Assembly (NCBI RefSeq): GCF_055900595.2
Contig: NZ_CM148325.1
Direction: 5' to 3' (one strand)
Length of the DNA stretch: 64,000 nucleotides
The notes below the pieces were generated by a model that saw only the letters and a program-made list of their open reading frames with translations, searched no databases and was not told where the DNA came from. Made by a program: the position numbers and the translations under genes. Shown here one piece after another: positions 737 through 57,271 of the stretch. Position 1 is the stretch's first letter. The number at the start of each line of letters is the position of its first letter.

Positions 737-739
737 CTA

Positions 740-5371: not shown

Positions 5372-5389
5372 GTCCCGTTCCCTGTGTGA

Positions 5390-5842: not shown

Positions 5843-5892
5843 AATGGTATGAGTCCTTGTTAATTAATAAATTATTTAATGATGGTTTTTAT

Positions 5893-8464: not shown

Positions 8465-9030
8465 ATGACACCAGCAGGAAATAAATTAAGCACCTTCTTG
8501 TATTTTTCCGATAGAGTATTCACTGATTCTGTTGTATCACCTACATAGTTAACATTTGCCAAATCAGAGACCAATCCATAGTTAATCAATAGCCAATAAT
8601 CAGCAACTATAGATGCTTGTTGTTCCATAGAATAAGAAGAAATTGACTGTAAATTAAGATCGTAATGATAATTTGCCGCCCAGGAAAATAAACCACGCAA
8701 CTTAACTGCATACCCTTTCTGATATTGCCAAACATGCATCGTTTCATGAATAAACAAGTGAGAAGCACCTGCAACTGTTTCACGATCACCAGGCATTGCT
8801 TGCGATGAAAAATCTGAACTATAAACAGCATCAGGATAATACATTTCCCCGTTTGGGGTCATCGCTGTTCTTTCCCCTTGACCAGGCAAATATTTTTCAT
8901 TGTGGATCCATACCTTGCTATAATCAATTGTATTCTCAAAAATCGATCTGGCCAATGTTAATTCACCAGATGTCATTCTCCTTAATGATATATCCTTTCC
9001 CCTGGAAATAATATCTTTCAGATAAAACAC
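8461..9030 (-). CDS. Putative zincin-like metallopeptidase, 189 aa; candidate secreted effector
   Basis: HExxH motif extended to HETMHVWQYQ at residues 95-104, an HExxHxxQ pattern I recall as typical of DUF4157-type toxin domains. No signal peptide. AT-rich. Confidence 0.5.
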   Translation of the reverse strand: MFYLKDIISRGKDISLRRMTSGELTLARSIFENTIDYSKVWIHNEKYLPGQGERTAMTPNGEMYYPDAVYSSDFSSQAMPGDRETVAGASHLFIHETMHVWQYQKGYAVKLRGLFSWAANYHYDLNLQSISSYSMEQQASIVADYWLLINYGLVSDLANVNYVGDTTESVNTLSEKYKKVLNLFPAGVI

Positions 9031-9928
9031 AAACGCTCTTTGATGTTCAACATTTCCACTTTATACAGTATTGATGACATCATCTTCATAGAAAATGAAA
9101 TCAAAGTAAGTTATCAACGTTTCCCGTTATGATTTTTTAACCTTAATTCTCAGCATTTTTATTAATCTATCTTCAATATCAATAACCGATGCAAATGATT
9201 ACGCAGTTATCATAACTCCCATCAATTGATTAATATCTGTAAACGCTACCGCCCCACCCTGATATTTTAATCTGCACATAGCAATCTTAACGTTATGCCC
9301 CATACATTAGTAATGTAAATTAAGAATTCGGAATATATCAAATTCACTTCATAAATTAATATCGAGAATGATATACACATTAATTATATTGAAGTCATGT
9401 TTTAAGCGTTGTAATGACCATGGAACAGGACTAATTCCAGAAACTCCTGTCAGGCAATAGCGCGTTTATCACCCTACATGCCTTTTACATTTTTTAGCCT
9501 TTTCTGTAACGTCGGCAACTGGCTCATTTAATCAGCAATTGTATCGGCATTTGGCGTATTACCCCTGAAACCTGCCATGTGCTAGCCCCTCACTATTCAA
9601 TGATCCAACCACGCCAGTGTCCACTGCAACCACTGGCGTTCAGAGCGACGAACGAGTGGCGCAAGAGTAGGACTGCCGTCGGGTATCATCAAACCAATAG
9701 TGGTTGTTTCCGTCATAATTTCATCAGGTTGCTATTTTGTTGCCGGCCGCCTTTATCCCCGCATATTTATAGCGGGATTATTTTGCATCGTTACACGATA
9801 AAAGGTAGGATTCTGCGCCGACAGTTATACCCATAAAGAATAATGGTGAATCTTGTCATCGCCAGGATGAATAAACATTGTTCATGGCAACTTATATGAC
9901 TTTTTCATTAAAGCAATCAGGGAGAGCA

Positions 9929-35208: not shown

Positions 35209-36864
35209 TTAACTCATCACGCGGTCGTCAACATACTGACGTTTATCCGGCGCTGGCGGGAAATACTGATACAGCCATGTTTCACTGATAGCGTCGCCCT
35301 GACAACGCAGATACATCCGCATATCGACCGGATCAGTGGAGTCCGAAGTCGGATACCAGTCAAACTGAATACGATAACCATCAATGGGTTCAATATAGAG
35401 AATTTCGATTTGCTTCGCTTCCCCACTGGAAAGCGTAATCACCGGCTCAATGCCTTTTGGTGCGGCAGCTTTCAGATCACCACCAACGAAATCGACGGCA
35501 AAACGACGCGCCCATTTTTCGGGATAGTGTTCACCAGGCGCCCAACCTTCCGGGAAACCGCCCATGCCGGTACGCGTTGCCATAACGCGCGCTAATGGGC
35601 AATGAACAGGCGGTTGCGCACTCCAGTACAGACGATACTGGAATGCAAACTCATCACCCGCTTTTACAGCTTTTTCTGGCTGCCAGAAGCAGACAATGTT
35701 ATCCAGCGTTTCGCCCGTTGTTGGGATTTCCATCAGGCCGATGGTGCCCTTACCCCACTTGTTACGCGGTTCCACCCACAGACTTGGGCGTTTGTTATAC
35801 CAGCCCATAATGTCCTGATAATGAGAGAAATCGCGATCCAGTTGCAATAAACCAAACCCTTTCGGGTTGTTGTCGGTGTAAGCATTGAACTGCAATTTTT
35901 GCGGATTATTCAGCGGACGGCAAATCCACTCGCCGTTGCCCCGCCACATGGACAGACGATCAGAGTCATGGATTTGCGGATGAATGGTGTCGCACATCCG
36001 ACGTTCATTAGTGCCGCAGCTGAACATGCTGGTCATCGGCGCAATGCCCAGCTGTTTAATGTCTTTGCGCGCATACAGGTGATTTTCCACATCCATAATC
36101 ACCTGACTTTTCTCACAATGGATAGTGAACTTATAGGCACCAGTAATGCTGGCGCTATCGAGCAACGCATAAACGGTAAAGGTGGTTGCCCCTGGTTTTA
36201 CCGTATCAAACCAGAAGGCGGTAAAGTCGGGGAACTCTTCTTTGCTGTCGGTGTAAGTGTCGATCGCCAGGCCGCGGGCCGACAAACCGTATTGATATGT
36301 GTCATCAACGGCGCGGAAATAACTCGCGCCGAGGAATGATACGACATCACGGCGCGCCAGTTCGGGGGCTTTAAACACGCGAAAACCGGCAAAACCGAGA
36401 TCGCTTTGCCCTTCTAATTGTTTGGTATCCACACCCGCATCGTTGTATTTGAACAACTCCGGGCGAAAGTGAATTTCACGCGCCAGATGTGTTGCTGGAT
36501 CTACAGAAAACATACGAACGCGGCGACGGAATCCCATTCCCATATGGAAGAACTGAGCGTCCAGTTGACGGTTCTCAACGTTATGCCAGAGCGATTTTTC
36601 GGCGTCGTATTGAATACTGTTATAAGCCTGCGGCGTCATTGTCGCCAGAGTGTCAGGTAACGGACGCGGCGCACCACGCCACGCGGTTTGCGCTAAGTCG
36701 TGCGCCATTGACTGTAGAATGGAGAAGTCAAAACGCTGGGTTTGCCCGTCGGCAATATCAGAATCTGCCGCGAATGCCGCCTGAGAAAAAAGAGAAGCAA
36801 TGCCGCTGGTACCGCACACGGCGGCCATAGCCATTGAACCTTTAATAAATCGTCTACGATCCAT
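35209..36864 (-). CDS. opgD: Glucans biosynthesis protein D (periplasmic, Tat-exported), 551 aa
   Basis: Tat signal ([18 protein letters not shown]); matches K-12 OpgD/MdoD. Confidence 0.9.
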
Positions 36865-37088
36865 ACCTGAAAGTGAGTCCTTCTGGTGTTGTGAATAGTC
36901 CCGCGCTGGTCGTTTTCAGCGGCAAGAAAGTGCTTATTTATGACCGCTCACTCTAGACAATATTTATTAATAATCCAATTGTTGAACTCAGAGAATATGC
37001 ATTAATCGGCAATTTTTTTATGTCGATGGGATGAGCCTGATTCGTTTGTAAAATCAGGCAAATTTTTGCAAAGGCAGATAGTCAAAAT

Positions 37089-38432
37089 TTAAAGCAAACC
37101 ACAGCGGCGTTTACTGCGTTCTTCCGCTTCCTGATAAAGCTGGAACTCATCAAAAACTGGGCATCCCAACGCATGTTCGAAAGCTTCGCGGCTGGCATTA
37201 CCGTGACTGCGTGCCTGCGTTTCATTACCCAGATTTGACTGGAAGATCCCCGCCGCGCTAACAGGCAAAAAATCTTCATAAGTAATGGGTTGTGCCACTA
37301 CCCAACCACGTTCAATTAAGGGTTGTGGATCGTCTCCGGGATGAATCGCCTGACGATGCGCCTCACCTGAAGGCGTCAAACGATATCGGAACCATGCCAA
37401 CCCTTGCTGACGCATTAAAAACTCACTGTCAGGAAAAGTGCGGAAGGTTTCCTGTAAATGCATTTGATGAGTGAGATTATCCTGCCCGGTTCCAGCGTTC
37501 CGCAGAAGATCATCATACATTTGTCGTCCTTTCGGCGTTAATGCCACGCCACGCTGCTCTATTTCACCAAAGCGCGCGGTATGCGTGCCCTGTTTCTGCC
37601 CCGCAAACAACACCTTCTCTTCCAGTGCTTTAAAGCTGGTCTGGCGTAGTAAAATCGGTACCTCGCGGCGCGGCGGCCCTTCGATCAGAATTTTGGGTTC
37701 AATTCCGCATTCAGGCATCATCGACTGCACACGGTCAATATCCAGCGTACGTGGCGTCAGGTGGTTGATATGGCACCCAGGAAAACAGACCACATCAGCA
37801 ATCAGCCGATGTTCGTTGTGCAACGCACGATAGGTTTCTTCATCAACCGTTGCTGACTGGTGCCAGCGAAACGTTTCCAGGGCTTCCTGCACAAACTCCT
37901 GTGCCTGTGTTTCGTTAAAACCGCCCCGCTGCTCATACTCCTCTAACAGTTGTCGACAACGTGGGGTGAAGATATCGCGCTGACGCAGAATCTCCGCCGC
38001 TTTCTGGCGCAAAAATTCGTTCTCGATAAGCTCAAGACGGAGTAATGAGGTAAAAACGCGGAAGGGATTACGCGCCAGAGAAGCATCATCAATGGGCCGA
38101 AATGCTGTGGAATGTACCGGCACGCCCGCCTGCGAGAGATCGTAATAGCTCACCGGGTACATCCCCATAATGGCAAACATCCGCCGAAGAGTAGCAAGCT
38201 CTTGTGCAGTCCCAACGCGAATTGCCCCATGACGTTCAACATTCAGTCGCGCCAGCTCGTCTGCATTTACCATTTTTTCGTGCAGTTGAGGATTGTTTTC
38301 CAGCACAGCCAGATTCACATCAGCTACCAGTTCCAGCAGCGTGCCGTACTGCGGAACTTCTTGCTGGTACATGGCTGACATTGCCTGCGAAAACTGTTCC
38401 CGAATCTCATCCGCCGTGATGCTGTTCGCCAT
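37089..38432 (-). CDS. ydcJ: DUF1338 metalloenzyme YdcJ, 447 aa
   Basis: Matches K-12 YdcJ length and sequence. Confidence 0.85.
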   Translation of the reverse strand: MANSITADEIREQFSQAMSAMYQQEVPQYGTLLELVADVNLAVLENNPQLHEKMVNADELARLNVERHGAIRVGTAQELATLRRMFAIMGMYPVSYYDLSQAGVPVHSTAFRPIDDASLARNPFRVFTSLLRLELIENEFLRQKAAEILRQRDIFTPRCRQLLEEYEQRGGFNETQAQEFVQEALETFRWHQSATVDEETYRALHNEHRLIADVVCFPGCHINHLTPRTLDIDRVQSMMPECGIEPKILIEGPPRREVPILLRQTSFKALEEKVLFAGQKQGTHTARFGEIEQRGVALTPKGRQMYDDLLRNAGTGQDNLTHQMHLQETFRTFPDSEFLMRQQGLAWFRYRLTPSGEAHRQAIHPGDDPQPLIERGWVVAQPITYEDFLPVSAAGIFQSNLGNETQARSHGNASREAFEHALGCPVFDEFQLYQEAEERSKRRCGLL

Positions 38433-38648
38433 AATGTCTGCCTCCAGTGGTCAGTAATCTGGAGTGTAGGTAACCGCATTCACTCTGGCGGGAAGAATTT
38501 GCAAACTGTGATCTCGCCGCGAAAACATCAATATTATCCATTTCGCTGTAACACAATTGCTTTATTTGTTAATAATATTTTGCAACTAAGTTATCATAAT
38601 CAAACAACTTCACTTGTCAGCGACACTGCTTCGTTTTTAACATCGCTT

Positions 38649-39572
38649 ATGGAAAAAAATAGTCTGTTTAGTCAGCGCATCCGTTTGCGCCACCTTCATA
38701 CATTCGTAGCTGTCGCACAACAAGGAACTTTGGGGCGCGCGGCTGAAACCCTTAATTTGAGTCAACCTGCGCTCTCTAAAACATTGAATGAACTGGAGCA
38801 GCTGACGGGCGCTCGCTTGTTTGAGCGTGGTCGTCAGGGGGCGCAACTTACCTTACCCGGCGAACAATTTTTAACACATGCAGTCAGAGTTCTTGACGCT
38901 ATTAACACTGCCGGACAGTCGCTTCATCGTAAAGAAGGTCTTAACAATGATGTCGTCAGGGTAGGTGCATTACCTACCGCGGCGCTGGGAATATTACCTT
39001 CGGTTATAGGTCAGTTTCATCAGCAACAAAAAGAGACGACCTTGCAAGTTGCGACAATGAGTAACCCTATGATTCTGGCGGGTTTGAAGACTGGCGAAAT
39101 CGATATCGGCATTGGTCGGATGTCAGATCCTGAACTGATGACCGGGCTTAATTATGAACTGCTGTTTCTTGAATCGCTGAAGCTGGTCGTCCGCCCTAAT
39201 CACCCGCTACTTCAGGAGAACGTAACGCTAAGCCGGGTGCTGGAATGGCCGGTTGTTGTATCACCAGAAGGCACTGCGCCACGCCAGCATTCAGATGCAT
39301 TAGTGCAGAGCCAGGGCTGTAAAATTCCTTCGGGCTGTATCGAAACACTGTCTGCTTCGCTATCTCGTCAACTTACGGTTGAATACGACTACGTGTGGTT
39401 TGTCCCTTCTGGCGCTGTAAAAGACGACCTGCGTCATGCCACGCTGGTGGCCCTGCCTGTTCCGGGTCATGGTGCAGGCGAACCGATTGGAATACTGACC
39501 CGCGTAGATGCGACGTTCTCTTCTGGTTGCCAGTTGATGATTAACGCTATTCGAAAATCAATGCCGTTCTGA
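38649..39572 (+). CDS. ydcI: LysR-family transcriptional regulator YdcI, 307 aa
   Basis: LysR HTH (HLHTFVAVAQQGTLGRAAETLNLSQPALSKTLNELE); the track ORF is extended 50 codons upstream. Confidence 0.85.
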   Translation: MEKNSLFSQRIRLRHLHTFVAVAQQGTLGRAAETLNLSQPALSKTLNELEQLTGARLFERGRQGAQLTLPGEQFLTHAVRVLDAINTAGQSLHRKEGLNNDVVRVGALPTAALGILPSVIGQFHQQQKETTLQVATMSNPMILAGLKTGEIDIGIGRMSDPELMTGLNYELLFLESLKLVVRPNHPLLQENVTLSRVLEWPVVVSPEGTAPRQHSDALVQSQGCKIPSGCIETLSASLSRQLTVEYDYVWFVPSGAVKDDLRHATLVALPVPGHGAGEPIGILTRVDATFSSGCQLMINAIRKSMPF

Positions 39573-39609
39573 AAGGTGAAGGGATCTGTCGATCCCTCCT
39601 TTAACATTT

Positions 39610-41250
39610 TCACACCGTAGCGAAACTAACTGGTTCACCAGCTCCGCGAGGTTCTGCCGACACAGAATGTTTGTTCAGACGGAATACGTCCACCGCCTCA
39701 GTTAATCGTGCAGCCTGTTCTTCAAGGGACACCGCCGCCGCTGAGGCCTCTTCTACCAGAGAAGCATTCTGTTGCGTCACCTTATCCATTTCGGAAATCG
39801 CCTGGCTCACCTGCGTTATGCCTCTGCTTTGCTCATCCGAGGCGGCGGCAATCTCCTGCATGATATGTGTGACACTCGCGACGGCATCAACAATAGTGCT
39901 CATGGTTTTCCCTGCCGTTGCTACCTCATCCGATCCCAGGTCAATTAATCTGACTGATTCACTGATCAAGCCTTCAATCTCTTTTGCCGCCTGAGCGCTG
40001 CGGCTTGCGAGTGTCCGTACTTCGCTGGCGACAACGGCAAATCCACGTCCTTGCTCACCCGCTCGCGCGGCTTCAACGGCAGCATTCAGTGCCAGAATAT
40101 TCGTCTGGAAAGCAATACTGTTGATGACGGAAGTGATCTCGGAAATTTTCTTCGAACTCGTGGAGATAGCGCCCATCGTTTTTACTACACCGGAAACCGT
40201 CTGCCCGCCATCGCTGGCTTTAATAGAAGCCTCTTGCGCCAGTTTGCTGGCATGATGCGCGTTATCCGCATTCTGTTTCACCGTTGCAGTGAGTTGCTCC
40301 ATGCTGGCGGCAGTTTGTTCGATTGCCGCCGCTTGTTCTTCGGTGCGAGATGACAGGTCCGCATTGCCAGCGGAAATTTCGCTGGTGCCACGATAAATCT
40401 CTTCCGCGCCCTGTCGAACGGTCCCTACAGTCATCCCCAGTGAATGCTGCATTTGCTGTAAATGATGACTTAAGCGACCGATTTCATTACGACCCGCCGG
40501 TTCATCATTCATCGTCAGATCGCCACTGGCAATTTTTTCAATCCGTTGTGCGGCATGTTGCAGTGGACGAATGACGATCCGACGTAGCACCATAAATGTT
40601 ATCAGCGTCATGACCACGGCAAGCACAAACGCGCCAATCATAAACATCACACCCAGGCGGGTACGCTGATGGGCCTGTTCCGCCAGTTGGTTGGCTCTGG
40701 TGCTACGTATCTTAACGGCTTTGTTCAAAATATCGGTATAAGCATTATCCAGCGGTCGGATCTGCTCACTTTCATGATTGATAATCGCCTCAAACATGCC
40801 ATTTTTGGCATATTTCAGCATGGGTTGGATACCCGTGATATAAGCCTGGAAACGTTGATTTAATTCAGCCTCGAGAGCTTCATCAGCAGGTGTTTTCACC
40901 GGCCGACTCCGGTAAGCCCGATAACCTTGCTGCGACTGTTTAATCTCCGATTCGGCTTGCGCAATATTTCGCTTCATTGCTTCCATTTCCGCAATACGAC
41001 TCGCGGCCCCGGCCTGAATCATATTGATCCGGGCCGAACGCAAAAAATCTGAGCTGTTCGCTAACCCGGTCCGAACCTCAATCTCTGCAGTCACATCACG
41101 CTGATCGCGATCGGCCTTCCAGAGGAAATAGCCAGCCAGGGCTGAACTCAAGGCAAACAGAAGTAAGATACCGCCAAGAATGCAGGCAAATAACGGAACC
41201 AGCCTGATGTGATGCAAAAAACCTAATCGCTGTGAGGGAGTTGTATTCAT
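39610..41250 (-). CDS. trg: Methyl-accepting chemotaxis protein III (ribose/galactose), 546 aa
   Basis: Two transmembrane segments, HAMP and MCP signalling domain (conserved [29 protein letters not shown]). Confidence 0.9.
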
Positions 41251-41544
41251 TACCGTTGTCTCTCGTCCAGGTTTACTCCTGATAGAAAGTCATCGGCACT
41301 TGACGGTAATTACTTATGACCAAAAACCTCTTTGCGTCACATTTTTACAACAATTATGGCAGAGAAGAATAATGCCATTGGAATGAAGAGAGTAACGAAC
41401 GGCTAAACCGAATGACGAAAAATTCTGGAAAACAGCACGCAATTTCGTCAAGTGATTATTTTCGTCCCTAAGGAAACCTCATAGGATGCCTGCGGGTGCC
41501 TGAGACTTTCTGTTTTCAGGCTAACCGGGAATCAGAAAGACGAA

Positions 41545-41581
41545 GGCCCCGACCGATATTTCTATCAACCGAGGCCAACGA

Positions 41582-41610
<29 letters not shown>
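41545..41610 (-). ncRNA. sokB: Approximate position of the sokB antisense RNA
   Basis: Inferred only from the hok/sok paradigm (antisense overlapping the mok start region); boundaries not determined. Confidence 0.3.
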
Positions 41611-41789
<179 letters not shown>

Positions 41790-41860
41790 GGGCAAGCGCG
41801 GGGATTTTCCCCGCGCATCTGACTAGCAGATTCATTTTCTCATGGCACCCCTTTTACACT

Positions 41861-42034
41861 TCAGTTAGTGCATGTTTTTTTCGATGCACTAATAGAACCA
41901 TCATTACAGACAAATTTGCCACCTGCCGTACAGTGTGAGATCCCCCCTTTCGAACCAGAACAGGGTTTGCGCCCGGCATCGGCATAAAAGGAAACAAGCG
42001 CTCCCATAACCAAGATAAGTGCCAATTTTTTCAT
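41861..42034 (-). CDS. ydcA: Small secreted protein YdcA, 57 aa
   Basis: Own translation MKKLALILVMGALVSFYADAGRKPCSGSKGGISHCTAGGKFVCNDGSIASASKKTCTN; signal peptide. Confidence 0.7.
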   Translation of the reverse strand: MKKLALILVMGALVSFYADAGRKPCSGSKGGISHCTAGGKFVCNDGSISASKKTCTN

Positions 42035-42204
42035 ATAACCTCCATGGTTTATCGAATCTTATGTTCGATTTGAACGTTATACGCTGGTTTATTTTGATAC
42101 CGTTGATGAGATCAAAGATCGGGTGAATTGATTAAAGATAAGCCAGATGGACATATGGACAAGGATTATGGTTTTATTTGTCATACAAATAAATATAATA
42201 GGCG

Positions 42205-42268
42205 CTTCCGATGTAGGCCCGTATTCTTCGCCTGTACCACGGGTCGGTTTTAGTACAGGCGTTTTCTT
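42205..42268 (+). ncRNA. rydC: Hfq-dependent small RNA RydC
   Basis: cttccgatgtaggcccgtattcttcgcctgtaccacgggtcggttttagtacaggcgttttcttt matches remembered RydC, with a terminal hairpin and U-tract, in the cybB/ydcA intergenic region. Confidence 0.7.
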
Positions 42269-42278
42269 TAAAGATCCT

Positions 42279-42809
42279 TCAGGAACGTTTACGCGGCATC
42301 ATGCGTAGAAGTGTGTTGTCCTTCCAGAAATAGTGGTGTGCCAGTGCAGCCGCAGCGTGCAACCCGATGACAAAATATCCCAGATTCGCCAGCGTCTCAT
42401 GCCACCACTTTAAGCTATCAACCCGTTCGAAATTGGCCTCTGCTGCATAAGGCATTGTCATACCAAACGCAAACCACGGGTTGCCCCGGTTATACATCAT
42501 CACCAAACCAATCACTGGCAGCGCAATAAACAGGAGATAGATCACCAAATGTCCCAAATGTGCCAGTCCCGTCATCATCGGTTTTGGTTTAGGTACAATC
42601 GGCGGAGTCGGGTTTTTAAGCCTTAACAAAAGACGAACAACCATCAGCACGAGAATTGAGATGCCACAGGAAACATGAATCATGTTGATGAGCGGCCGAT
42701 CGCTACGTGGGAAGAAACCACGAAACTCCATTGCGCAATACGCTGCGATAACCAACAAAAAGACCAGCCAGTGAATGCTGATTTGTAACCTTGAGTATTT
42801 ATTTTCCAT
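42279..42809 (-). CDS. cybB: Cytochrome b561, 176 aa
   Basis: Matches K-12 CybB from MENKYSRLQISIHWLVFLL. Confidence 0.85.
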   Translation of the reverse strand: MENKYSRLQISIHWLVFLLVIAAYCAMEFRGFFPRSDRPLINMIHVSCGISILVLMVVRLLLRLKNPTPPIVPKPKPMMTGLAHLGHLVIYLLFIALPVIGLVMMYNRGNPWFAFGMTMPYAAEANFERVDSLKWWHETLANLGYFVIGLHAAAALAHHYFWKDNTLLRMMPRKRS

Positions 42810-42997
42810 AACATTTCCTGCTTTAAAACAATTTGCCGTTAACATAACGAGCTTTTCTTAAAATTTCATTAAATATTGTTCACCCGTTTTCAGTACGTTA
42901 CGTTCCACGGCAAGAATGTAGATTGCCCATCCCGCCATCCTGGTCTAAGCCTGGAAAGGATCAATTTTCATCCGAACGTTCCTGACAGGAGAAGACC

Positions 42998-43999
42998 ATG
43001 AGTAAAGTTGGTATTAACGGTTTTGGTCGTATCGGTCGACTGGTGTTGCGTCGATTACTTGAAGTCAAAAGTAACATAGACATTGTCGCTATTAATGATC
43101 TCACTTCCCCAAAAATTCTCGCCTACCTGCTGAAACATGATTCAAACTACGGACCGTTCCCCTGGAGCGTTGATTTTACGGAAGATTCACTTATCGTTGA
43201 TGGAAAAAGTATCGCGGTTTACGCCGAAAAAGAGGCTAAAAATATTCCATGGAAAGCGAAAGGCGCAGAAATCATTGTCGAATGTACTGGCTTTTATACC
43301 TCCGCCGAGAAATCGCAGGCGCACCTTGATGCTGGTGCGAAGAAGGTGTTGATTTCCGCCCCTGCCGGTGAAATGAAAACCATCGTTTATAACGTCAATG
43401 ACGACACACTGGATAGCAACGACACCATTGTTTCCGTGGCGTCATGCACCACTAACTGTCTTGCACCGATGGCCAAAGCCTTGCACGACAGTTTCGGAAT
43501 AGAAGTCGGCACGATGACGACCATTCATGCCTATACTGGCACCCAGTCACTGGTGGATGGCCCGCGAGGTAAAGATCTACGCGCTTCACGTGCAGCGGCA
43601 GAAAATATCATTCCCCACACTACAGGCGCGGCAAAAGCCATTGGTCTGGTGATCCCAGAACTGAGCGGCAAACTGAAAGGTCATGCGCAACGCGTACCCG
43701 TGAAAACAGGTTCGGTGACTGAACTGGTGTCTATTCTTGGAAAAAAAGTGACTGCCGAAGAGGTGAACAACGCGCTTAAAAACGCGACAAACAATAACGA
43801 GTCATTTGGTTATACCGATGAAGAAATAGTCTCTTCTGATATCATTGGCAGCCATTTCGGGTCGGTGTTTGATGCCACGCAAACCGAAATTACCACCGTG
43901 GGCGATTTACAGCTGGTGAAAACGGTCGCCTGGTATGATAACGAATATGGCTTCGTCACGCAGCTTATTCGCACCCTCGAAAAATTCGCTAAACTCTGA
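42998..43999 (+). CDS. gapC: Glyceraldehyde-3-phosphate dehydrogenase C, intact 333-aa frame
   Basis: NAD-binding [10 protein letters not shown], catalytic [10 protein letters not shown]-terminal WYDNEYGF; uninterrupted ORF. Confidence 0.85.
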
Positions 44000-44040
44000 C
44001 GAGCAAAGGCGGAGGGAAAAGCCTCCGCCTCTTTCACTCA

Positions 44041-45480
44041 TTACGACTGTAAATAAACCACCTGGGTCTGCAGGTATTCATGCAAGCCATGTTTGCCATC
44101 TGCGCCGCCAATACCGGATTTACGCCATCCGGCGTGGAATCCTTGCATAGCTTCGAAGTTTTCACGGTTGATGTAAGTTTCACCAAACTTCAGCCCTTTA
44201 ATAGCTTTCATCGCGACGTTCAGATTTTGGGTATAGAGTGATGAGGTCAGGCCGTAATCACTGTCATTAGCCATTGCGATAGCCTCTTCCAGCGTGTCAA
44301 ATGCGACCACTGGCAGCACCGGGCCAAAGGTTTCCTCGTGCATGATCGACATTTCCTGACGAACATCCAGTAGCAATGTCGGCGGATAATAATATCCTTT
44401 CCCCTCTACTGCCTTGCCCCCCAACGCCACTCTCGCCCCCTCTTCGACTGCGCGCGCCACTTTTTGCTCGACCCTTTCCAGCGCCGCGGCGTTAATCAAC
44501 GGCCCCATCGCAATGTCGTTGCGTTCAGCGGGGTTACCAAATTGAACCGCCTGCATCGCTTCACCCAGCCGATTGACGAAATGATCATAAATGCCTTTCT
44601 GTACATAAACACGTTCTGCACAGTTACACACTTGCCCACTATTAATGACGCGTGAATCAACGATGGCTTTGACTGCCAGTTCAAGATCGGCATCGTCCAT
44701 TACGATAGCTGGTGCTTTACCACCCAATTCCAGACACACTTTTGTGATATTTTTTGCTGCAGTCGCCATGATCTTTTCACCTGCAGAGACGCTGCCTGTC
44801 ATACTGACCATTGCGACCTTTGGGTTACCCGCCAGTTCTTGCCCAACAGTTTCACCACGCCCCAGCACAAGGTTAAACACACCGCGTGGAAGGCCTATTT
44901 CATCGACAATTTTGGCAAAAGCAATCGCATTGTTTGGCGTAAATTCACTGGGTTTAATGACGATGGTATTACCGGTCAAAAGAGCGGGAGCCATTTTGCG
45001 GGCAATGAGGAAGAACGGGAAGTTCCACGGCAGAATGCCGGTAGTCACGCCAAGCGCACGTTTAAAGAGAAGAATATTTTCTCCTGGACGATCGCTTTGA
45101 ATAATCTCGCCTTCATAACGCCGTGCCCACTCCGCCATGTAATCGATATAGTCCGCAGTAAAAGCCACTTCGACTTCAGCCAGCTGCTGGATCTTGCCCC
45201 CTTCTTCAACAATCAGCGCACTGATTTCACCGGCGCGTTCGCGGATCCCGGCGGAGATTTTGCACAACCAACTGGCGCGTTCAATGGCAGGCAATGCTTC
45301 CCATTCTGGCTGCGCGCGCTCTGCGGCGTCGATTGCTTTGCGAGCATCTTCAGCCTGACCATCGGGAATGCGGGAAATCACCGCCTCTGTTGCGGGGTTA
45401 ACCACATAAATCCATGCGTCTCCACGCCAGGTAACAAACTGTCCATCGATATACATAGGATGTTGAACGGGTACTGACAT
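44041..45480 (-). CDS. aldA: Lactaldehyde dehydrogenase, 479 aa
   Basis: Aldehyde dehydrogenase family; matches K-12 AldA. Confidence 0.9.
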   Translation of the reverse strand: MSVPVQHPMYIDGQFVTWRGDAWIYVVNPATEAVISRIPDGQAEDARKAIDAAERAQPEWEALPAIERASWLCKISAGIRERAGEISALIVEEGGKIQQLAEVEVAFTADYIDYMAEWARRYEGEIIQSDRPGENILLFKRALGVTTGILPWNFPFFLIARKMAPALLTGNTIVIKPSEFTPNNAIAFAKIVDEIGLPRGVFNLVLGRGETVGQELAGNPKVAMVSMTGSVSAGEKIMATAAKNITKVCLELGGKAPAIVMDDADLELAVKAIVDSRVINSGQVCNCAERVYVQKGIYDHFVNRLGEAMQAVQFGNPAERNDIAMGPLINAAALERVEQKVARAVEEGARVALGGKAVEGKGYYYPPTLLLDVRQEMSIMHEETFGPVLPVVAFDTLEEAIAMANDSDYGLTSSLYTQNLNVAMKAIKGLKFGETYINRENFEAMQGFHAGWRKSGIGGADGKHGLHEYLQTQVVYLQS

Positions 45481-45673
45481 GGGAGACTCCTGTGATTAAT
45501 GTGTGTATTTGGTAAATTATTTGTTAATTAATATCAATCATCATAGAGACAGCATCTTGAAAGGACAAATCTGTGAAGAGCTTCATAAAAAGAAGGGTAA
45601 AAGGAATAAAAGGCAGAAAAAAAAGTAAGGAGTCATGCCCGTTTGCAAACAGTTGTTCTCAAACGGGCAATTT

Positions 45674-46474
45674 TCAACGTAGCGAACGACTTTCCATCGC
45701 CTCGATGAGCACCGCATCGTGTTTCAGCGTTTGCCATGCCTGGATGACTTCTGCCGGAAAATCAACGTGAACGATAAAATCTCGCCCGCGTGGACCGTAG
45801 CCATCGCTATCATCGCGTAAACGTGGCAGCTCGCCAGTGAGTAGTGAGAGATAACGCTCAACCGCCCATAATCCTTCTAACTGGTTAATAAAGATTACAC
45901 TGTCTTCGTTATTTCCCAACTGAGGAACGAATCCGGGATAACTTAACCAACGAGGTGCGTCTGGATTGTCACCGGTAATACGACGGAACGTCGCCATTGT
46001 GCGCCGCTGCATGGTGGGGTCCTGAACAACGATAGCCGTATGAACTCTTTCTACGGCCTGATTCAATAGCGCGATGCTAAAGCGTGCGTTTTCACCGCAG
46101 TTTGTTGACTGGTCTTCAATCCAGATTTTTTCATGCGGAATGTGCCAGAACTGATGAGCGATATCCGCCAGGATGGTAGCTTCTGCTCTGCCAGTGGTGC
46201 GGATAGTGTTGTAGTGCGGATGCTGTGCGATGGCGCTATACAAAAAAGTTGTCGAGTGACCGATACCACCACTAATCAGTAGAGGAATTTGCTGATCGCG
46301 GGCAATCTTACATGCCGCATCGATAGTCGGCATAACCGCATTGCCTGCAAGGATCACGCAATCGGCCTGATACGGCACCTCACCGGAGAAATCATCCTGC
46401 GCCAGCCACTGACCGATAACATTTATGGCATCTATGGTTGCCGGCGAAAGCGTCGGAAACGGGGTAATGTTCAT
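45674..46474 (-). CDS. ydcF: DUF218-domain protein YdcF, 266 aa
   Basis: Matches K-12 YdcF length and sequence. Confidence 0.8.
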
Positions 46475-46863
46475 GGTTCCTCCTTATCGTTCCCTTAAGA
46501 ATACTGCGTGAGATAATAATGAGAAGCGGAGCACTCTGAAAGGAAGATGATGCTTTTTCTATCGCGCCATCGCGAACCAGACACTGGTTTTAGTCATACT
46601 GTATTTGCGGAGAAACTGTTGATAAAACATCAATAACATAATGTTGTATCATTTTTAAATGATAGATAATCTGGTGTGATATTTATATAATATTCATTCT
46701 TATATTTCTCAATCAAGGGGAACATTTGCAACACGCTCATTAGTGGTAATTCCTTAAATTTTAATTGAATAATATCTGCTCTCAGCTATAAACTACTATC
46801 TGTCTATGGTGCCGAATTACCATTTTTATTCATCAACACAATGCTATATGTCGAGAAACATAC

Positions 46864-47358
46864 ATGGAAAAAATATTTCAACTTTTAGAAACCGCCTGGC
46901 CTGCCGTAAAAGCAACAGGACTTACAGGTTGCGTAACCGCTCCAGAAACTGAAGATAACCTTCTTTTATTTGAGGATAAATACGCGACACATATTCCAAA
47001 AGACTATCGGCAGTTATTATCTCATTTTGGCGCATGTCATTTTGCCGATCCTCAAATTTATACTTTGAATGATCTGGACAGATATTACCCTCTATTTTTT
47101 CAACAATGGGAAGAGTATAAAAAAGAATATCCATCATTGAACAACATTGATCCTTTTCCTGTTGGCAGTTTTGGCGACGGGAGTGTCGCTTTTCTTGACC
47201 GCAACAGCCTAAAAATTTATATTCTAATTCATGATTTTGGTATATTTACCGATGATGTTGGTGATTTCCCTTGTGAGTTATGCTTTGAAAATTTTGGTGA
47301 GTTAGTGGAAATGCAAGTTGAAATGATTCTTTATTTACAGCAATATCATGTATCATGA
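46864..47358 (+). CDS. Hypothetical protein, 164 aa; possible SMI1/KNR4 (SUKH-1)-like immunity protein
   Basis: AT-rich ORF with SUKH-like patterns (IPKDYRQLLSHFGACHF and VGSFGDGSVAFLD); family assignment is from motif recollection only. Confidence 0.45.
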   Translation: MEKIFQLLETAWPAVKATGLTGCVTAPETEDNLLLFEDKYATHIPKDYRQLLSHFGACHFADPQIYTLNDLDRYYPLFFQQWEEYKKEYPSLNNIDPFPVGSFGDGSVAFLDRNSLKIYILIHDFGIFTDDVGDFPCELCFENFGELVEMQVEMILYLQQYHVS

Positions 47359-47395
47359 ATAATAAAATTATCACTCATGTTCTTACTGAAAAAAA

Positions 47396-47656
47396 GTGAA
47401 TTCTATAGCAGAGAAATATTGTAAAATGTATAATCTTAATAGCTCGTTAGCATACCAAATCACGGCTATTAAATTTCTTCCTGATGGTATGAAATCATTC
47501 GGCCTTGATGTTCCATTATGGATGGTCGTCAGAGATGTTAACGGTTGGGATGATATGGAAATTACGATTTTTATTTGTGACAAAAATAGTGAAGTTCTTT
47601 GTTGCAGTAATATTTGGTATCCAGTATATCGTCCTCATCAAGCAGATTTGTTATAA
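47396..47656 (+). CDS. Hypothetical small protein, 86 aa
   Basis: ORF in the same AT-rich islet, followed by a terminator hairpin; no recognisable domain. Confidence 0.25.
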   Translation: MNSIAEKYCKMYNLNSSLAYQITAIKFLPDGMKSFGLDVPLWMVVRDVNGWDDMEITIFICDKNSEVLCCSNIWYPVYRPHQADLL

Positions 47657-47701
47657 GCACGTAAGGAGTACCGCCCTTGCTATTTTTCAGAATTCATAAA
47701 G

Positions 47702-47735
47702 AAAAAACCCGGCGCTAAATGCTTACCGGGTTTTA
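47702..47735. terminator. Bidirectional rho-independent terminator downstream of hrpA
   Basis: aaaaaacccggcgctaaatgcttaccgggtttt: GC stem flanked by an A-run and a T-run. Confidence 0.55.
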
Positions 47736-47758
47736 GATTTATCAGGCAAATAGCAGCG

Positions 47759-50700
47759 TTAACCGCTAATCTGCTCCATCGCCTGCAAAATACGCTTATC
47801 TGAAATCGGATAAGGCGTACCAAGTTGTTGAGCGAAGTAACTAACGCGCAGTTCTTCTATCATCCAACGGATCTCTTTCACATCCTCATCCTCACGACGT
47901 GCGGGCGGCAGTTTGTTGATCCATTGCTGCCACGCCTGCTGGACGTTTTCAACTTTCAGCATCTGAGCACGGTCACGGTGCGGGTCAACCGCCAGTTTTT
48001 CCAGACGCTTTTCAATCGCCTGCAAATAACGCAGCGTGTCGCCCAGCCGTTTGAAGCCATTACCAGTGACAAAACCGCGATACACCAGCCCACCCATCTG
48101 CGCTTTAATGTCAGAAAGCCCCAGCGCCATGGTCATATCCACCCGTCCTTTCAGGCGTTTGTTGATATTGAACACTGCCGTAAGGATTTGCTCGACCTGC
48201 TTCGCAATATCCACCACCGTGTCGTTCAGTTCAGCGCGGACTTTTTCATGAAGCGCAGCAAAGCCTTCTTCCGTCCAGACCGGGCCGCCCGCCTCATCAA
48301 TCAATTTATCAACACCGCAGGAGATGCAGTCGTCAATGAGATCCAGCACTTTACCGTACGGGTTAAAGTAGAGACCCAGCTTCGCTTTGTTCGGCAGTTT
48401 CTCATGCAGATATTTAATTGGCGACGGAATGTTCAGCAACAGCAAGCGACGCAAACCACGCCACATAGCCTGCTGTTGTTCCTGCGGGTTATCAAAAAGC
48501 TTAATCGCTACGCTGTCACGCTCATCCACCAGCGCAGGCCAGGCCTTCACTTTGTAGTTGCCACGTTTCTGCTCGTAGTGATCCGGTAAATTACCGAAGC
48601 TCCAGATATGTAACCCGCTTTGCTCAATACCATCATCGGCAACGGCGGAAAGCGTTTCCTGCACTTTGCCTTTCAGGGCGTCTTTCAGATCCTGTAATGA
48701 GCGCCCTTCTTTTAGCTTCTTATTTTTGTCGTCCACCACGCGGAAGGTGATTTTCAGGTGATCGGGCACCTGCTCCCAGTGCCAGTCTTCGCGGTCAACG
48801 GTAACGCCGGTCATCCGCCGTAGCTCGCGCTCAAGGCTGTCGAGCAACGGCAGTTCCAGCGGCGTGACGCGACCTAAAAACGCTTCGGCGTAGTTTGGCG
48901 CGGGCACAAAATTACGCCGTACCGGTTTCGGCAACGATTTGATTAGAGCAATCACCAGTTCACGGCGCAGGCCGGGGATCTGCCATTCAAACCCGCTTTC
49001 CTCAACCTGGTTAAGTAACGGCAGCGGAATATGCACGGTCACACCGTCAGCATCCGCCCCCGGCTCAAACTGATAGCTTAAACGCAGCTTGAGATTACCC
49101 TGATGCCAAAAGTTCGGGTAATCCAGCTTGCTGATTTTTTCCGCCCCTTCTTTGATCAACATGCTCTTTTCAAAGTTGAGCAAATCAGGCGTTTCGCGGC
49201 TGACTTTTTTCCACCAACTATCAAAGTGACGTGCAGAGATCACATCATGGCTGATGCGCTGGTCGTAAAACTCAAACAACGTTTCGTCATCCACCAGAAT
49301 ATCGCGGCGACGTGATTTGTGTTCCAGTTCTTCCACTTCTGCCCGTAGTTTCAGGTTTTCACGGAAGAATGCGTGACGCGTCTGCCAGTCACCTTCCACC
49401 AGCGCGTGGCGAATAAAAAGTTCACGACACAGCGCAGGATCAATCTGGCTGTAGTTGACCTTACGCGCAGCAACAATCGGCAACCCGTAAACGGTGACTT
49501 TTTCAGTTGCCATCACCGCGCCCTGCGCCCGTTCCCAGTGCGGTTCGCTGTAGGAGCGTTTAATCAAATGCTGGGCAACTGGCTCTACCCATTCCGGATC
49601 GATACGTGCCGCAATGCGCCCCCACAGGCGGCTGGTTTCTACCAGTTCCGCCACCATTGCCCATTTCGGCGGCTTCTTGAATAAACCAGAACCGGGGAAG
49701 ATGGAGAAACGCGCGTTACGTGCGCCGGTATATTCCTGTTTATCGGCATCTTTCATGCCGATATGCGAAAGCAAACCTGTCAGTAAGGCGATGTGAATTT
49801 CGCGATACTCCGCCGGTTCGCTGTTAACCGGAATGCCAAGTTCTTTCACCACCTGGCGCAACTGGGTGTAGATATCCTGCCATTCGCGCACGCGCAGATA
49901 GTTAAGGTAATCGGTACGGCACAGGCGACGGAAGGCGTTTGAAGAGAGCGCCTTTTGCTGCTCGCCGAGATAATTCCACAGATTTACAAACGCCAGGAAG
50001 TCGGATTCTTTATCGTGAAAGCGACGATGTTTTTCGTCCGATGCCTGCTGCTTGTCCATTGGCCGCTCACGCGGGTCCTGAATAGAGAGCGCGGAAGTGA
50101 TAATCATCGCCTCACGCACGCAGCCATGTTTCTGCGCTTCCAGCACCATTCGCGCCAGACGAGGATCGACTGGCAGTTGCGAGAGCTGGCGACCGAGCGG
50201 CGTCAGTTTATAGGCGCTGGCCTGTTCATCAGTGGTGATCGCGCCCAGCTCTTCGAGCAGACGCACGCCATCCTGGATATTGCGTTTATCCGGCGCTTCT
50301 ACAAACGGGAACGCAGCGATATCGCCCAGCCCCAGCGCGGTCATCTGCAAAATAACCGAGGCCAGGTTGGTACGCAGAATCTCCGGATCGGTAAATTCCG
50401 GGCGCGAGAGGAAATCGTCTTCGGAATAAAGACGAATGCAGATCCCTTCTGACACACGACCACAGCGGCCTTTACGCTGATTAGCTGAAGCCTGCGAAAT
50501 GGGCTCAATCGGCAGACGCTGCACTTTGGTGCGATAGCTGTAGCGGCTGATACGCGCCGTACCTGGGTCGATAACGTATTTAATCCCCGGCACAGTCAGC
50601 GAGGTTTCCGCGACGTTAGTCGCCAGCACAATGCGCCGTCCGCTGTGCGACTGGAAGACGCGGTTCTGCTCGCTGTTCGAAAGCCGTGCATAAAGCGGAA

Positions 50701-51661
50701 GAATTTCCGTATGGCGTAAGTTCAGCTTGTTCAGCGCATCGGCGGTATCGCGAATTTCTCGCTCGCCGCTCATAAAAATCAGAATGTCGCCAGGGCTTTC
50801 CTGGCTCAGTTCGTCTACGGCATCGAAAATCGCCTGCAACTGGTCGCGCTCGGTGTCATCAGCTTCTTCAACAATCGGGCGATAGCGCACCTCCACCGGA
50901 TAGGTACGACCGGAGACTTCGATAATCGGCGCATTATTAAAGTGGCGCGAAAAGCGTTCCGGGTCGATAGTCGCGGAAGTGATAATGATTTTTAGGTCAG
51001 GACGCCGCGGCAGCAACTCTTTCAAATAACCGAGGAGAAAATCGATATTCAGGCTGCGTTCGTGCGCTTCGTCAATAATGATGGTGTCGTACTGCATCAG
51101 CAGGCGGTCTTGCTGGATCTCCGCCAGCAGGATACCGTCGGTCATCAGCTTGACCATCGTGTTATCACTTACGTGATCGCTGAAACGCACTTTATACCCG
51201 ATGCAACCGCCCGGCTCCGTTTTCAGCTCTTCCGCAATACGGTTCGCCACCGTTCGTGCCGCCAGACGACGCGGCTGGGTGTGGCCGATCAGCCCTTTAA
51301 TCCCGCGGCCCAGTTCCATACAGATTTTCGGTAACTGAGTCGTTTTACCGGAACCCGTTTCCCCGGCGACGATCACCACCTGGTGATCACGGATTGCTTC
51401 GAGAATGTCCTGCTTTTTCTGACTAACCGGCAAATTGTCCGGATAAGTGATTTCCGGTCGTGCTGCTTCACGCAGCAGGACTTTCCCTGCCGCCTGGTCA
51501 ATCTCTTTCGCCATCTCCTGGAAAATGGCCTGTTGTGCATCAGGATTTTTAACCTTCTTCACGCCGTGCAGACGGCGGGAAAAACGCAGTCTGTCACGCA
51601 GCATCAGCGAATCCAACCGTTGCTGCAAGGCCGTAAAGGTCAATTTTTGTTGTTCTGTCAT
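47759..51661 (-). CDS. hrpA: ATP-dependent RNA helicase HrpA (DEAH-box), 1300 aa
   Basis: Helicase motifs (GETGSGKTTQLP, DEAHER); length matches K-12 HrpA. Confidence 0.95.
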   Translation of the reverse strand: MTEQQKLTFTALQQRLDSLMLRDRLRFSRRLHGVKKVKNPDAQQAIFQEMAKEIDQAAGKVLLREAARPEITYPDNLPVSQKKQDILEAIRDHQVVIVAGETGSGKTTQLPKICMELGRGIKGLIGHTQPRRLAARTVANRIAEELKTEPGGCIGYKVRFSDHVSDNTMVKLMTDGILLAEIQQDRLLMQYDTIIIDEAHERSLNIDFLLGYLKELLPRRPDLKIIITSATIDPERFSRHFNNAPIIEVSGRTYPVEVRYRPIVEEADDTERDQLQAIFDAVDELSQESPGDILIFMSGEREIRDTADALNKLNLRHTEILPLYARLSNSEQNRVFQSHSGRRIVLATNVAETSLTVPGIKYVIDPGTARISRYSYRTKVQRLPIEPISQASANQRKGRCGRVSEGICIRLYSEDDFLSRPEFTDPEILRTNLASVILQMTALGLGDIAAFPFVEAPDKRNIQDGVRLLEELGAITTDEQASAYKLTPLGRQLSQLPVDPRLARMVLEAQKHGCVREAMIITSALSIQDPRERPMDKQQASDEKHRRFHDKESDFLAFVNLWNYLGEQQKALSSNAFRRLCRTDYLNYLRVREWQDIYTQLRQVVKELGIPVNSEPAEYREIHIALLTGLLSHIGMKDADKQEYTGARNARFSIFPGSGLFKKPPKWAMVAELVETSRLWGRIAARIDPEWVEPVAQHLIKRSYSEPHWERAQGAVMATEKVTVYGLPIVAARKVNYSQIDPALCRELFIRHALVEGDWQTRHAFFRENLKLRAEVEELEHKSRRRDILVDDETLFEFYDQRISHDVISARHFDSWWKKVSRETPDLLNFEKSMLIKEGAEKISKLDYPNFWHQGNLKLRLSYQFEPGADADGVTVHIPLPLLNQVEESGFEWQIPGLRRELVIALIKSLPKPVRRNFVPAPNYAEAFLGRVTPLELPLLDSLERELRRMTGVTVDREDWHWEQVPDHLKITFRVVDDKNKKLKEGRSLQDLKDALKGKVQETLSAVADDGIEQSGLHIWSFGNLPDHYEQKRGNYKVKAWPALVDERDSVAIKLFDNPQEQQQAMWRGLRRLLLLNIPSPIKYLHEKLPNKAKLGLYFNPYGKVLDLIDDCISCGVDKLIDEAGGPVWTEEGFAALHEKVRAELNDTVVDIAKQVEQILTAVFNINKRLKGRVDMTMALGLSDIKAQMGGLVYRGFVTGNGFKRLGDTLRYLQAIEKRLEKLAVDPHRDRAQMLKVENVQQAWQQWINKLPPARREDEDVKEIRWMIEELRVSYFAQQLGTPYPISDKRILQAMEQISG

Positions 51662-51852
51662 AACGTTAGTGGGCAGCAGGCTGCCTGATTAATTTTCTTT
51701 TAAATGATAGATATAGAGTACCACATCGCGGCTTTCTATGCGTTGTTCAATAAATTCGAACATAGGCTTCGATTTATTGCGCTATCTCTGTGGCAGGATT
51801 GTGAATAAAGTGTCAACAAGCAACGGGGCATCGCCCATTCAAACATCTATAA

Positions 51853-52467
<615 letters not shown>

Positions 52468-52520
52468 CCGGACACTATTTTGATGTGGACTGTAGATATT
52501 CAGTCCACATCTCAATCCAC

Positions 52521-55584
<3,064 letters not shown>

Positions 55585-55599
55585 TTTCTCTATTTTCCT

Positions 55600-56496
55600 T
55601 CAGTAACAGCAGTAGCGAATAAAATAAAAAAATACCGGAGCGGTGAAAATTAATGAGTCAATCCTGTCAAGGAGTCCGCCATGTCCTGGTAATAGTTTTC
55701 CACTATCTTTAACACCAATATCTTGTTTGATGGCTGACATCACTACATCGCCGCAAAAACCACTAATACCAATTAACAAACCCGCTAATAATGCCTGTAA
55801 TGTATCTAGCGGTGTCAGCAACGGTCCAATAATCAGTGACGCAATCATGGTGGTGATTACGCCGCCCATCAGACCTTCCAATGTTTTTCCCGGGCTGACT
55901 TTGGGGACCACTTTTCTTCTGCCGCAGGATTTTCCCCATAAATACTGTGCAATATCGTTTGACTCGGTTAATGCCAAAAGAAATAACACCAGTAACGCCC
56001 CGCCCTGGATATTTGTGGTTGGCAACATTAATAACCAGGCGGCATGACTCAAGGCGAAAACGGTCATTATCCAGCCCCAAAAAATGGCGCTCACGGTATG
56101 CAGAAAACCGGAGGGGTCACCCACTAAAACTCGCCAAGTGGCTAATATCAGAAACCCAGCCAAAGGTATAAATAACAGAAACAGCTCAAAGCAATTAAAA
56201 CCGATAAGAAAATAGTTAAGAGGAATACCCCAATATAACCAACGCGGAAAATGTACAGATATAAGCGTACAATATTCTTTCAATGCCAGAAAACTTATCA
56301 GCGCAAAAAACGTCAACGTCATCCAGCGTGGACCTGAAATGACCAGTGAAAAACAAATGACGATGCCCCACCAGGTACGAATACGTAATGTAACTTCATC
56401 TCCTTTTCTCTCCGGTAACCGCCATACCAGAAAACGGTTTATCAGCGTTGCTAAAATTAACAACACGAAAAGTATTGCCAGAGATTTTTCCAGCAT
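55600..56496 (-). CDS. ynbB: CDP-diglyceride synthetase-like membrane protein YnbB, 298 aa
   Basis: CdsA-like membrane protein; K-12 synteny ynbABCD. Confidence 0.8.
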   Translation of the reverse strand: MLEKSLAILFVLLILATLINRFLVWRLPERKGDEVTLRIRTWWGIVICFSLVISGPRWMTLTFFALISFLALKEYCTLISVHFPRWLYWGIPLNYFLIGFNCFELFLLFIPLAGFLILATWRVLVGDPSGFLHTVSAIFWGWIMTVFALSHAAWLLMLPTTNIQGGALLVLFLLALTESNDIAQYLWGKSCGRRKVVPKVSPGKTLEGLMGGVITTMIASLIIGPLLTPLDTLQALLAGLLIGISGFCGDVVMSAIKQDIGVKDSGKLLPGHGGLLDRIDSLIFTAPVFFYFIRYCCY

Positions 56497-57101
56497 TACT
56501 TTTCAGCGCTCATAAGGAGCACGCTTCGACAACGATTAATCGCAGTCCAGAGAAGCAGAATTGAAGCAATGCTCCATAAAAGATTATTCCATTGCATCCA
56601 CTGTGGATAAATGGCAACGGCCAGCCCCCACAAACCAAATATTAACGCACGATCGCTTTTGCCAAATGGACCGGCATAACTGCGAATACCGTTAATCGTC
56701 TGCGCGAGTAAACCGCAAAACTCAGTCAATATGGTGCAAAATAACATGAGTATTACGAGTGATGCGTTACTTTCCGGTAAAAATAAAAACGGTAAATAAA
56801 GCGCAATATCGGAAATAACATCGCCAGTTTCATTCAAAATCGCCCCAAGACGTGTTTGCTGATTACACTCACGCGCCATCATGCCATCCAGCGCATTGAG
56901 TGCCATACGGACAAAAAGCACGATGGGCAATAGCAAAAAGAGGATGGGTCGTGCCACCAACATCAACAGCAATCCGGTAAGAAGAGAAAGCGCCAGTGCA
57001 GCAAGAGTGATGTGATTCGCTGTAACATGGTGCTTATAAAGCCAAAACATCGTCGGCCTTAACAGCGACTGAAAGAGCGGTTTTATCTGGTAGAGCGTCA
57101 T
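56496..57101 (-). CDS. ynbA: CDP-alcohol phosphatidyltransferase-family protein YnbA, 201 aa
   Basis: Matches K-12 YnbA from MTLYQIKPLFQSLL. Confidence 0.8.
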   Translation of the reverse strand: MTLYQIKPLFQSLLRPTMFWLYKHHVTANHITLAALALSLLTGLLLMLVARPILFLLLPIVLFVRMALNALDGMMARECNQQTRLGAILNETGDVISDIALYLPFLFLPESNASLVILMLFCTILTEFCGLLAQTINGIRSYAGPFGKSDRALIFGLWGLAVAIYPQWMQWNNLLWSIASILLLWTAINRCRSVLLMSAEK

Positions 57102-57271
57102 TATCAATCCTTGATAATTCGGTTTGCGCTATGGTGCATCAATTCCCCTGACGGAGATATCGCAACACGCCGCTTCATTAAAAATTCAGAATATATCAAG
57201 GTATTGGGGACTCACCGTCAGGAATGATTATCCCCAATAGATCAAGTGGTTAAAAATTATTACGCTGTTAT

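Follow-up and report, generated by a model that had tools for sequence, protein, structure and literature searches.

An intact gapC allele in a divergent Escherichia coli genome and its probable product, an auxiliary glyceraldehyde-3-phosphate dehydrogenase

The annotation of E. coli K-12 MG1655 lists gapC (b4493, 1489713-1490713) as a pseudogene of 1001 bp, and the copy in strain JM109 is flagged by PGAP as 'frameshifted; internal stop'. The stretch of 64,000 nucleotides that was analysed for the current report (contig NZ_CM148325.1 of RefSeq assembly GCF_055900595.2, referred to in its full length as the window) carries a gapC gene that can be read from end to end. The locus raises the questions of which of the two states is the usual one in E. 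coli, whether the product of the intact gene is a working second glyceraldehyde-3-phosphate dehydrogenase (GAPDH), and what such an enzyme might contribute to its host.

Reading frame and product of gapC

In the window, gapC is a single unbroken frame at 42998..43999 of the plus strand, with an ATG start, 333 sense codons and a TGA stop. A preliminary description had given the gene this length and these boundaries, and the list of open reading frames and the raw sequence agree with it at the exact coordinates. A Shine-Dalgarno sequence (AGGAG, 42987..42991, plus strand) can be read from the sequence 6 nt 5' of the ATG and is invariant in all seven of the alleles that were aligned. Short ORFs (63-75 aa) that overlap the gene on the opposite strand or in its other frames arise as by-products of the coding sequence. 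At the same coordinates, near-identical RefSeq genomes are annotated by PGAP with an intact 'gap' CDS (WP_032302977.1). The reading frame, the Pfam and TIGR01534 matches, a 98.5% match to PDB entry 7C5F and the RefSeq annotation all identify the product as a type I NAD-dependent phosphorylating GAPDH.

The protein exhibits the two-domain architecture of the family, in which an N-terminal NAD-binding Rossmann domain (Gp_dh_N, PF00044, residues 3-102, E 1.1e-35) is followed by a C-terminal catalytic domain (Gp_dh_C, PF02800, residues 155-313, E 3.4e-58), and both matches lie far above the gathering scores. With a score of 447.1 bits, the protein clears the curated cut-off (367.2) of the NCBIfam equivalog model for type I GAPDH (TIGR01534), in a match that spans residues 3-325 of the protein and positions 1-330 of the 330 in the profile. 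These Pfam and TIGR01534 scores place the match far beyond chance. The GapA-type model (NF011954 / PRK15425) was rejected for this protein, which scores 299.4 bits and falls short of the cut-off of 662; in a search of the PDB, the protein also turned out to be nearer to GAPDHs of other bacterial groups (6iqm, 8hmn and 5j9g, at ~480 bits) than to GapA-like entries.

The catalytic and NAD-binding motifs that the preliminary description had placed in one frame are indeed all there, namely residues 5-14, Asp34, S149-C150-T-T-N-C154 and His177. The NAD-binding motif corresponds to residues 5-14, with a conserved G8-F-G10-R-I-G13 loop, and D34 is conserved in the alignment with GapC orthologues and GapA; an Asp at this position confers the preference for NAD over NADP in the GAPDH family. 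The same alignment of GapC orthologues with K-12 GapA shows G8-x-G10-x-x-G13, D34, S149-C150-T-T-N-C154, H177, T180, R195, R232, T209 and N315 to be invariant. The catalytic nucleophile Cys150, within the S149-C-T-T-N-C154 segment, is specified by a TGC codon at 43445..43447 (plus strand), and the catalytic base His177 by a CAT codon at 43526..43528 (plus strand).

Insights into the activity of this protein can be drawn from a near-identical enzyme. The PDB search retrieved an E. coli series (7C5F, 7C5H, 7C5P and 7C7K, together with mutants of C150 and H177) in which 328 of the 333 residues (98.5%) are the same as in the window protein. The sequence of 7C5F is that of the GapC allele of strains CI5 and AL.H8, and the changes from the window protein to it are I29V, S140G, N262Q, N265T and T300A, none of them catalytic. 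All five positions vary in the alignment of GapC orthologues with GapA; S140 is common to the window GapC and that of E. albertii, and residue 300 can be A, E or T among orthologues, with T300 confined to the window allele among the nine alleles compared. The wild-type enzyme of this series, named EcGAPDH1, is an active NAD-dependent GAPDH with a Km of 0.73 mM for D-G3P, as determined in assays under the non-physiological conditions of 50 C and pH 10 (PMC8615399). According to the same study, the activity is abolished in the C150A mutant and reduced ~10^4-fold in C150S and H177A (~8000-fold for H177A), and the structures contain G3P and the thioacyl intermediate (PMC8615399).

Pairwise Nei-Gojobori comparisons of the window gapC with eight other alleles yielded dN/dS ratios of 0.04-0.06 at dS values of 0.08-0.20, and a ratio of ~0.05 indicates strong purifying selection on the protein. 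We are highly confident that the product of the window gene should be a catalytically competent NAD-dependent phosphorylating GAPDH, by analogy with the allele, different at only five residues, for which the conversion of G3P to 1,3-BPG was measured. The suggestion in the preliminary description that the strain might possess a functional second GAPDH thus gains support and becomes very likely, since a 98.5%-identical protein has been purified, crystallised and found active.

Intact and disrupted gapC alleles in E. coli

In a global alignment, the window and K-12 genes are separated by 42 substitutions and one indel, at 95.7% nucleotide identity over the whole gene. Codon 39 (43112..43114, plus strand) is AAA (Lys) in the window and a TAA stop in K-12 as well as in ~21% of complete E. 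coli genomes, with confirmation in river, goose and chicken isolates. The homopolymer of seven A residues that spans codons 248-250 (43741..43747, plus strand) is in frame in the window, and its shortening to A6 in K-12 amounts to a -1 frameshift. The remaining changes from the window to the K-12 gene comprise six missense substitutions (R18G, I29V, S140G, N262Q, N265T and T300A) and 35 synonymous ones. With the TAA at codon 39 and the A6 run, a full-length GapC cannot be made in K-12. The preliminary description had presented K-12 gapC as a pseudogene split by a frame disruption; the alignment bears this out, since the K-12 frame is disrupted at codon 39 and at the A run rather than being identically intact, and it adds a nonsense codon to the frameshift.

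The gapC region was found by megablast in 5417 of 5426 complete E. coli genomes. The TAA allele of K-12 (searched as an exact 61-mer) is present in 1152 of the 5426 and the A6 frameshift allele (an exact 60-mer) in 1046, so that the K-12 lesions occur in about 20% of complete E. coli genomes. These counts rest on exact searches with short alleles. As a proxy for the frameshift, the length of the megablast match (net 1190 versus 1189 bases) was considered and dropped, as strain VTB97379v has a net length difference of -1 that stems from an intergenic indel, and its gene is intact. Five of the 5434 places that match gapC lie on records labelled as plasmids, and the gene is present twice in a few genomes.

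An intact CDS of 1002 bp with a protein accession was found in each of the eight genomes sampled among those that lack the K-12 lesions (ATCC 25922, O157:H7 7409, NRZ14408, PK12, CI5, AL.H8, 2017.20.01CC and VTB97379v). The 333-aa GapC of E. coli belongs to a protein cluster at 90% identity with 4797 member sequences, and full-length orthologues exist in E. albertii (96%), Citrobacter (~90%), and Trabulsiella and the Klebsiella oxytoca group (~88%). The gene is ancestral and usually intact in E. coli, and K-12 is the exception. Both K-12 lesions, in copies flagged as pseudogenes, are also carried by the river-water isolate 1008S13, the Canada-goose isolate BR1220 and the chicken isolate VTB97420v. 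The occurrence of the double lesion in wild isolates implies that K-12 inherited it from a natural lineage and did not acquire it in the laboratory.

Beside the double lesion of the K-12 type, E. coli shows several other, independent losses of gapC. In SCPM-O-B-7615, an IS1-associated deletion has removed the 3' parts of both gapC and aldA; the GapC of LF82 has a 19-residue in-frame deletion (129-147), and other variants lack residues 101-119 or the catalytic segment 147-161, or are C-terminal frameshift products of 383 aa. Such recurrent loss indicates that the gene is dispensable in some lineages and that its physiological contribution may be small.

According to passages in PMC2949598 and PMC1796617 that cite Espinosa-Urgel and Kolter (Mol Microbiol 1998), environmental or natural isolates have an intact gapC and laboratory strains a truncated one, and the gapC promoter is preferentially active in fresh water. 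An intact gapC is already known: RefSeq annotates it, the literature has described it since 1998, and both the structure and the kinetics of its product have been characterised. What the preliminary description overlooked is that the intact gene is the common, ancestral and already published condition of E. coli.

Surroundings of gapC and lineage of the window

The gene is flanked upstream by the divergent cybB (cytochrome b561 / superoxide oxidase; 42279..42809, minus strand; 96.0% identical to K-12 cybB) and downstream by the convergent aldA (aldehyde dehydrogenase A; 44041..45480, minus strand; 95.7% identical to K-12 aldA), both of which are annotated in near-identical genomes. The order cybB-gapC-aldA is the same in the window, in K-12 MG1655 and in the near-identical RefSeq genomes, which places the window gene at the position expected of the gapC orthologue. 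Just past cybB, Rfam matches mark RydC (42205-42268) and the sok antitoxin RNA of hokB (41494-41645), as in K-12.

The divergent intergenic region between cybB and gapC (42810..42997, 188 bp) presumably contains the promoters of both genes. With a mean column identity of 98% among seven E. coli alleles, it is better conserved than the synonymous sites of gapC (dS up to 0.2), and this difference suggests regulatory constraint. A scan of positions 42750-44100 for sigma-70 consensus promoters returned no sites, against 2.0 expected. In K-12, a ChIP-seq peak of sigma-S RNA polymerase maps to gapC_1/cybB (PMC4447067), and gapC_1 is listed in a table of a carbon-limitation transcriptome (PMC4512719). 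Within the species, synonymous diversity at gapC itself is high (dS up to 0.2).

The 41-bp gap between the convergent gapC and aldA contains a GC-rich hairpin (44007..44030), for which folding predicts about -19 to -20 kcal/mol. Its 9-bp stem and 6-nt loop have a centroid energy of -19.3 kcal/mol (z = -3.4 relative to shuffled sequences), and the accompanying U tract, CUUUCAC, is weak. The hairpin is a plausible candidate for a bidirectional terminator of gapC and aldA, and likely to serve as one. A scan of 42750-44100 for consensus terminators did not call this hairpin, owing to the weak T tract.

Among the 5426 complete E. coli genomes, only eight match the 16 kb around gapC (36000-52000) at 100% identity, namely E400634, E600003, E200086, E500002, 100117, 100248, AST85 and Z0117EC0005; the next best match reaches 96.0%. 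Over the span that can be aligned (9781-62392), the window is 93.6-96.6% identical to K-12. A local import of gapC was considered and rejected, since gapC is diverged by ~4% from most E. coli and the whole alignable span is diverged likewise, so that the divergence is a property of the lineage rather than of the gene. From these comparisons, the window looks like a piece of a deep-branching E. coli lineage, and our guess would be Escherichia cryptic clade I.

Several further differences from K-12 lie elsewhere in the window. The side that includes hrpA, azoR, ynbABCD, ydbD and pdxI (47685-62392) is more diverged from K-12 (93.6%, with 14 gaps), identity is down to 91.9% over the 3' 1964 nt of hrpA, and past ~62.4 kb, in the ydbA region, the similarity falls to ~69% over a short piece. 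Positions 1-9780 have no K-12 counterpart at this place. The matching region of E400634 encodes an RHS repeat core protein together with a small putative toxin and a SUKH-4 immunity protein, and also has a truncated 'phage late control D' gene; this Rhs toxin/immunity module sits where K-12 has rhsE. Positions 4003-6959 of the window differ even from E400634, which suggests a swapped Rhs tip or an extra cassette. In the interval between ydcF and hrpA, ~1.1 kb (46548-47684) are without a K-12 counterpart; the near-identical genomes have genes there for a SMI1/KNR4 family protein (46864-47358) and a 76-aa hypothetical protein (47426-47656), along with a gene fragment, and the interval could be an orphan islet of the immunity type.

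At ~26223, the window lacks the counterpart of K-12 positions 1509242-1509685 and with it hicA, the toxin gene, and the 5' portion of hicB; E400634 is annotated with a partial hicB only. The IS609 element with insQ that lies between ydcL and ydcO in K-12 (1503161-1504908) is absent from the window at 30559/30560. Two insertions of close relatives are likewise not in the window, namely an IS150 between trg and hokB in Z0117EC0005 and an IS200/IS605 tnpA between rimL and ydcH in E400634. The ydcS gene (~23111-24255) is annotated as 'frameshifted' in E400634, and since the window aligns to E400634 across this block free of gaps, it probably shares the putative pseudogene.

Role of GapC and comparison with known enzymes

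The reading that we consider highly probable is that the window gene is an intact, ancestral, chromosomal allele of gapC, and that its product is a homotetrameric type I GAPDH (EC 1.2.1.12), phosphorylating and NAD+-dependent, with a role that would be auxiliary and condition-specific. In such an enzyme, Cys150 would attack glyceraldehyde-3-phosphate with His177 acting as the base, hydride would be transferred to NAD+ to leave a thioacyl-enzyme, and phosphorolysis would then release 1,3-bisphosphoglycerate. This route through Cys and His, hydride transfer, a thioacyl intermediate and phosphorolysis is the standard mechanism of the GAPDH family. The window allele would be expressed and add GAPDH activity in vivo, and its expression would probably come from a condition-specific promoter in the conserved cybB-gapC intergenic region, in association with sigma-S and with low temperature or fresh water. 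K-12 and about one-fifth of the sequenced E. coli, by this account, would have inherited a doubly disrupted allele. Most likely, we infer, GapC serves as an auxiliary GAPDH under specific conditions and is not a co-equal enzyme of glycolysis.

A bolder version of this role, to which we would give only a small chance, would make GapC a dedicated GAPDH for stress conditions, co-regulated with the divergent superoxide oxidase gene cybB from their shared, unusually conserved and sigma-S-bound intergenic region. It might then sustain lower glycolysis or gluconeogenesis when GapA is oxidatively inactivated or impaired by cold, and the repeated losses of gapC might mark lineages that have given up a secondary, extra-intestinal habitat.

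It might instead be argued that gapC is intact but cryptic: silenced not long ago or simply not expressed, it would be a relic that is turning into a pseudogene and provides the strain with no GAPDH activity. The lack of a sigma-70 consensus promoter upstream of the gene and its independent inactivation in many E. coli lineages speak for such a relic, as does the example of Citrobacter sp. S-77, where gapA and gapC occur together and the purified GAPDH proved to be GapA. However, a dN/dS of ~0.05 maintained over dS values of up to 0.2 reflects long-term purifying selection, the gene has been kept intact from Klebsiella and Citrobacter via E. albertii to E. coli, and the upstream region, the Shine-Dalgarno sequence and the start codon vary less than synonymous sites do. 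Sigma-S RNA polymerase, moreover, binds the promoter region even of the K-12 pseudogene (PMC4447067), and a passage in PMC2949598 describes this pseudogene as having kept an environment-specific activation. The signal of selection, together with the upstream conservation, makes a cryptic, unexpressed gene unlikely.

Far less probable still is that the protein has the GAPDH fold but another main substrate or partner, so that it would not be a second glycolytic GAPDH. A precedent exists in Epd, a GAPDH paralogue of E. coli whose substrate has changed, and the window protein does give matches below threshold to the models for erythrose-4-phosphate dehydrogenase (Epd/GapB; NF010058 at 280.8 bits and TIGR01532 at 276.8 bits) and for the ArsJ-associated GAPDH (NF033735, 308.1 bits). 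Both assignments were rejected, as the scores are far under the respective cut-offs of 539, 530.55 and 450 whereas TIGR01534 passes its own, and the neighbours of gapC are cybB and aldA, with no arsJ adjacent to it. In addition, G3P is a substrate of the near-identical enzyme with NAD+ as the cofactor, and both G3P and the thioacyl intermediate are present in its structures (PMC8615399).

It is scarcely credible that the intact frame is an artefact of assembly or sequencing in which the A7/A6 homopolymer was miscalled: one K-12 lesion is indeed a single base in a run of seven A residues, a classic site of long-read error, but the other is a substitution (TAA versus AAA) and not a change in a homopolymer, the same intact sequence recurs at 100% identity in eight independent complete genomes, A7 with AAA at codon 39 is the state of most E. 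coli, and an allele that is 4.3% diverged from that of K-12 is not the K-12 allele plus an error, so that we regard this explanation as excluded.

With the intact ancestral gene as the preferred reading, most wild E. coli would encode a second, catalytically competent GAPDH. K-12 is atypical at gapC, and metabolic models and results on the essentiality of gapA that derive from K-12 should not be transferred uncritically to wild E. coli. Beyond correct annotation, the intact state of the gene matters little. The population counts are a small refinement, in that the K-12 lesions are natural and that several independent losses have occurred amid strong purifying selection elsewhere.

Four known systems can be set beside the window gene. 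The gapC locus of K-12 MG1655 (b4493; formerly gapC_1, b1417, and gapC_2, b1416) is orthologous, lies between cybB and aldA in the same manner and has a conserved upstream region, but differs from the window allele by the TAA at codon 39 and by A6 in place of A7 at codons 248-250. The enzyme studied as E. coli GapC or 'EcGAPDH1' (Zhang et al., Biomolecules 2021, PMC8615399) is a product of the same gene, with the same length, Cys150, His177 and NAD-binding residues, and is distinguished from the window protein by the substitutions I29V, S140G, N262Q, N265T and T300A. GapA (b1779), the housekeeping GAPDH of glycolysis in E. coli, shares the fold, both Pfam domains, the SCTTNCLAP motif and the catalytic His with the window GapC, yet the two are only 46% identical. 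The account of gapC by Espinosa-Urgel and Kolter (1998), as it is relayed in the citing passages, makes the same observation of an intact gene in natural isolates; unlike the account in those passages, the genome counts presented here find the K-12 lesions beyond laboratory strains.
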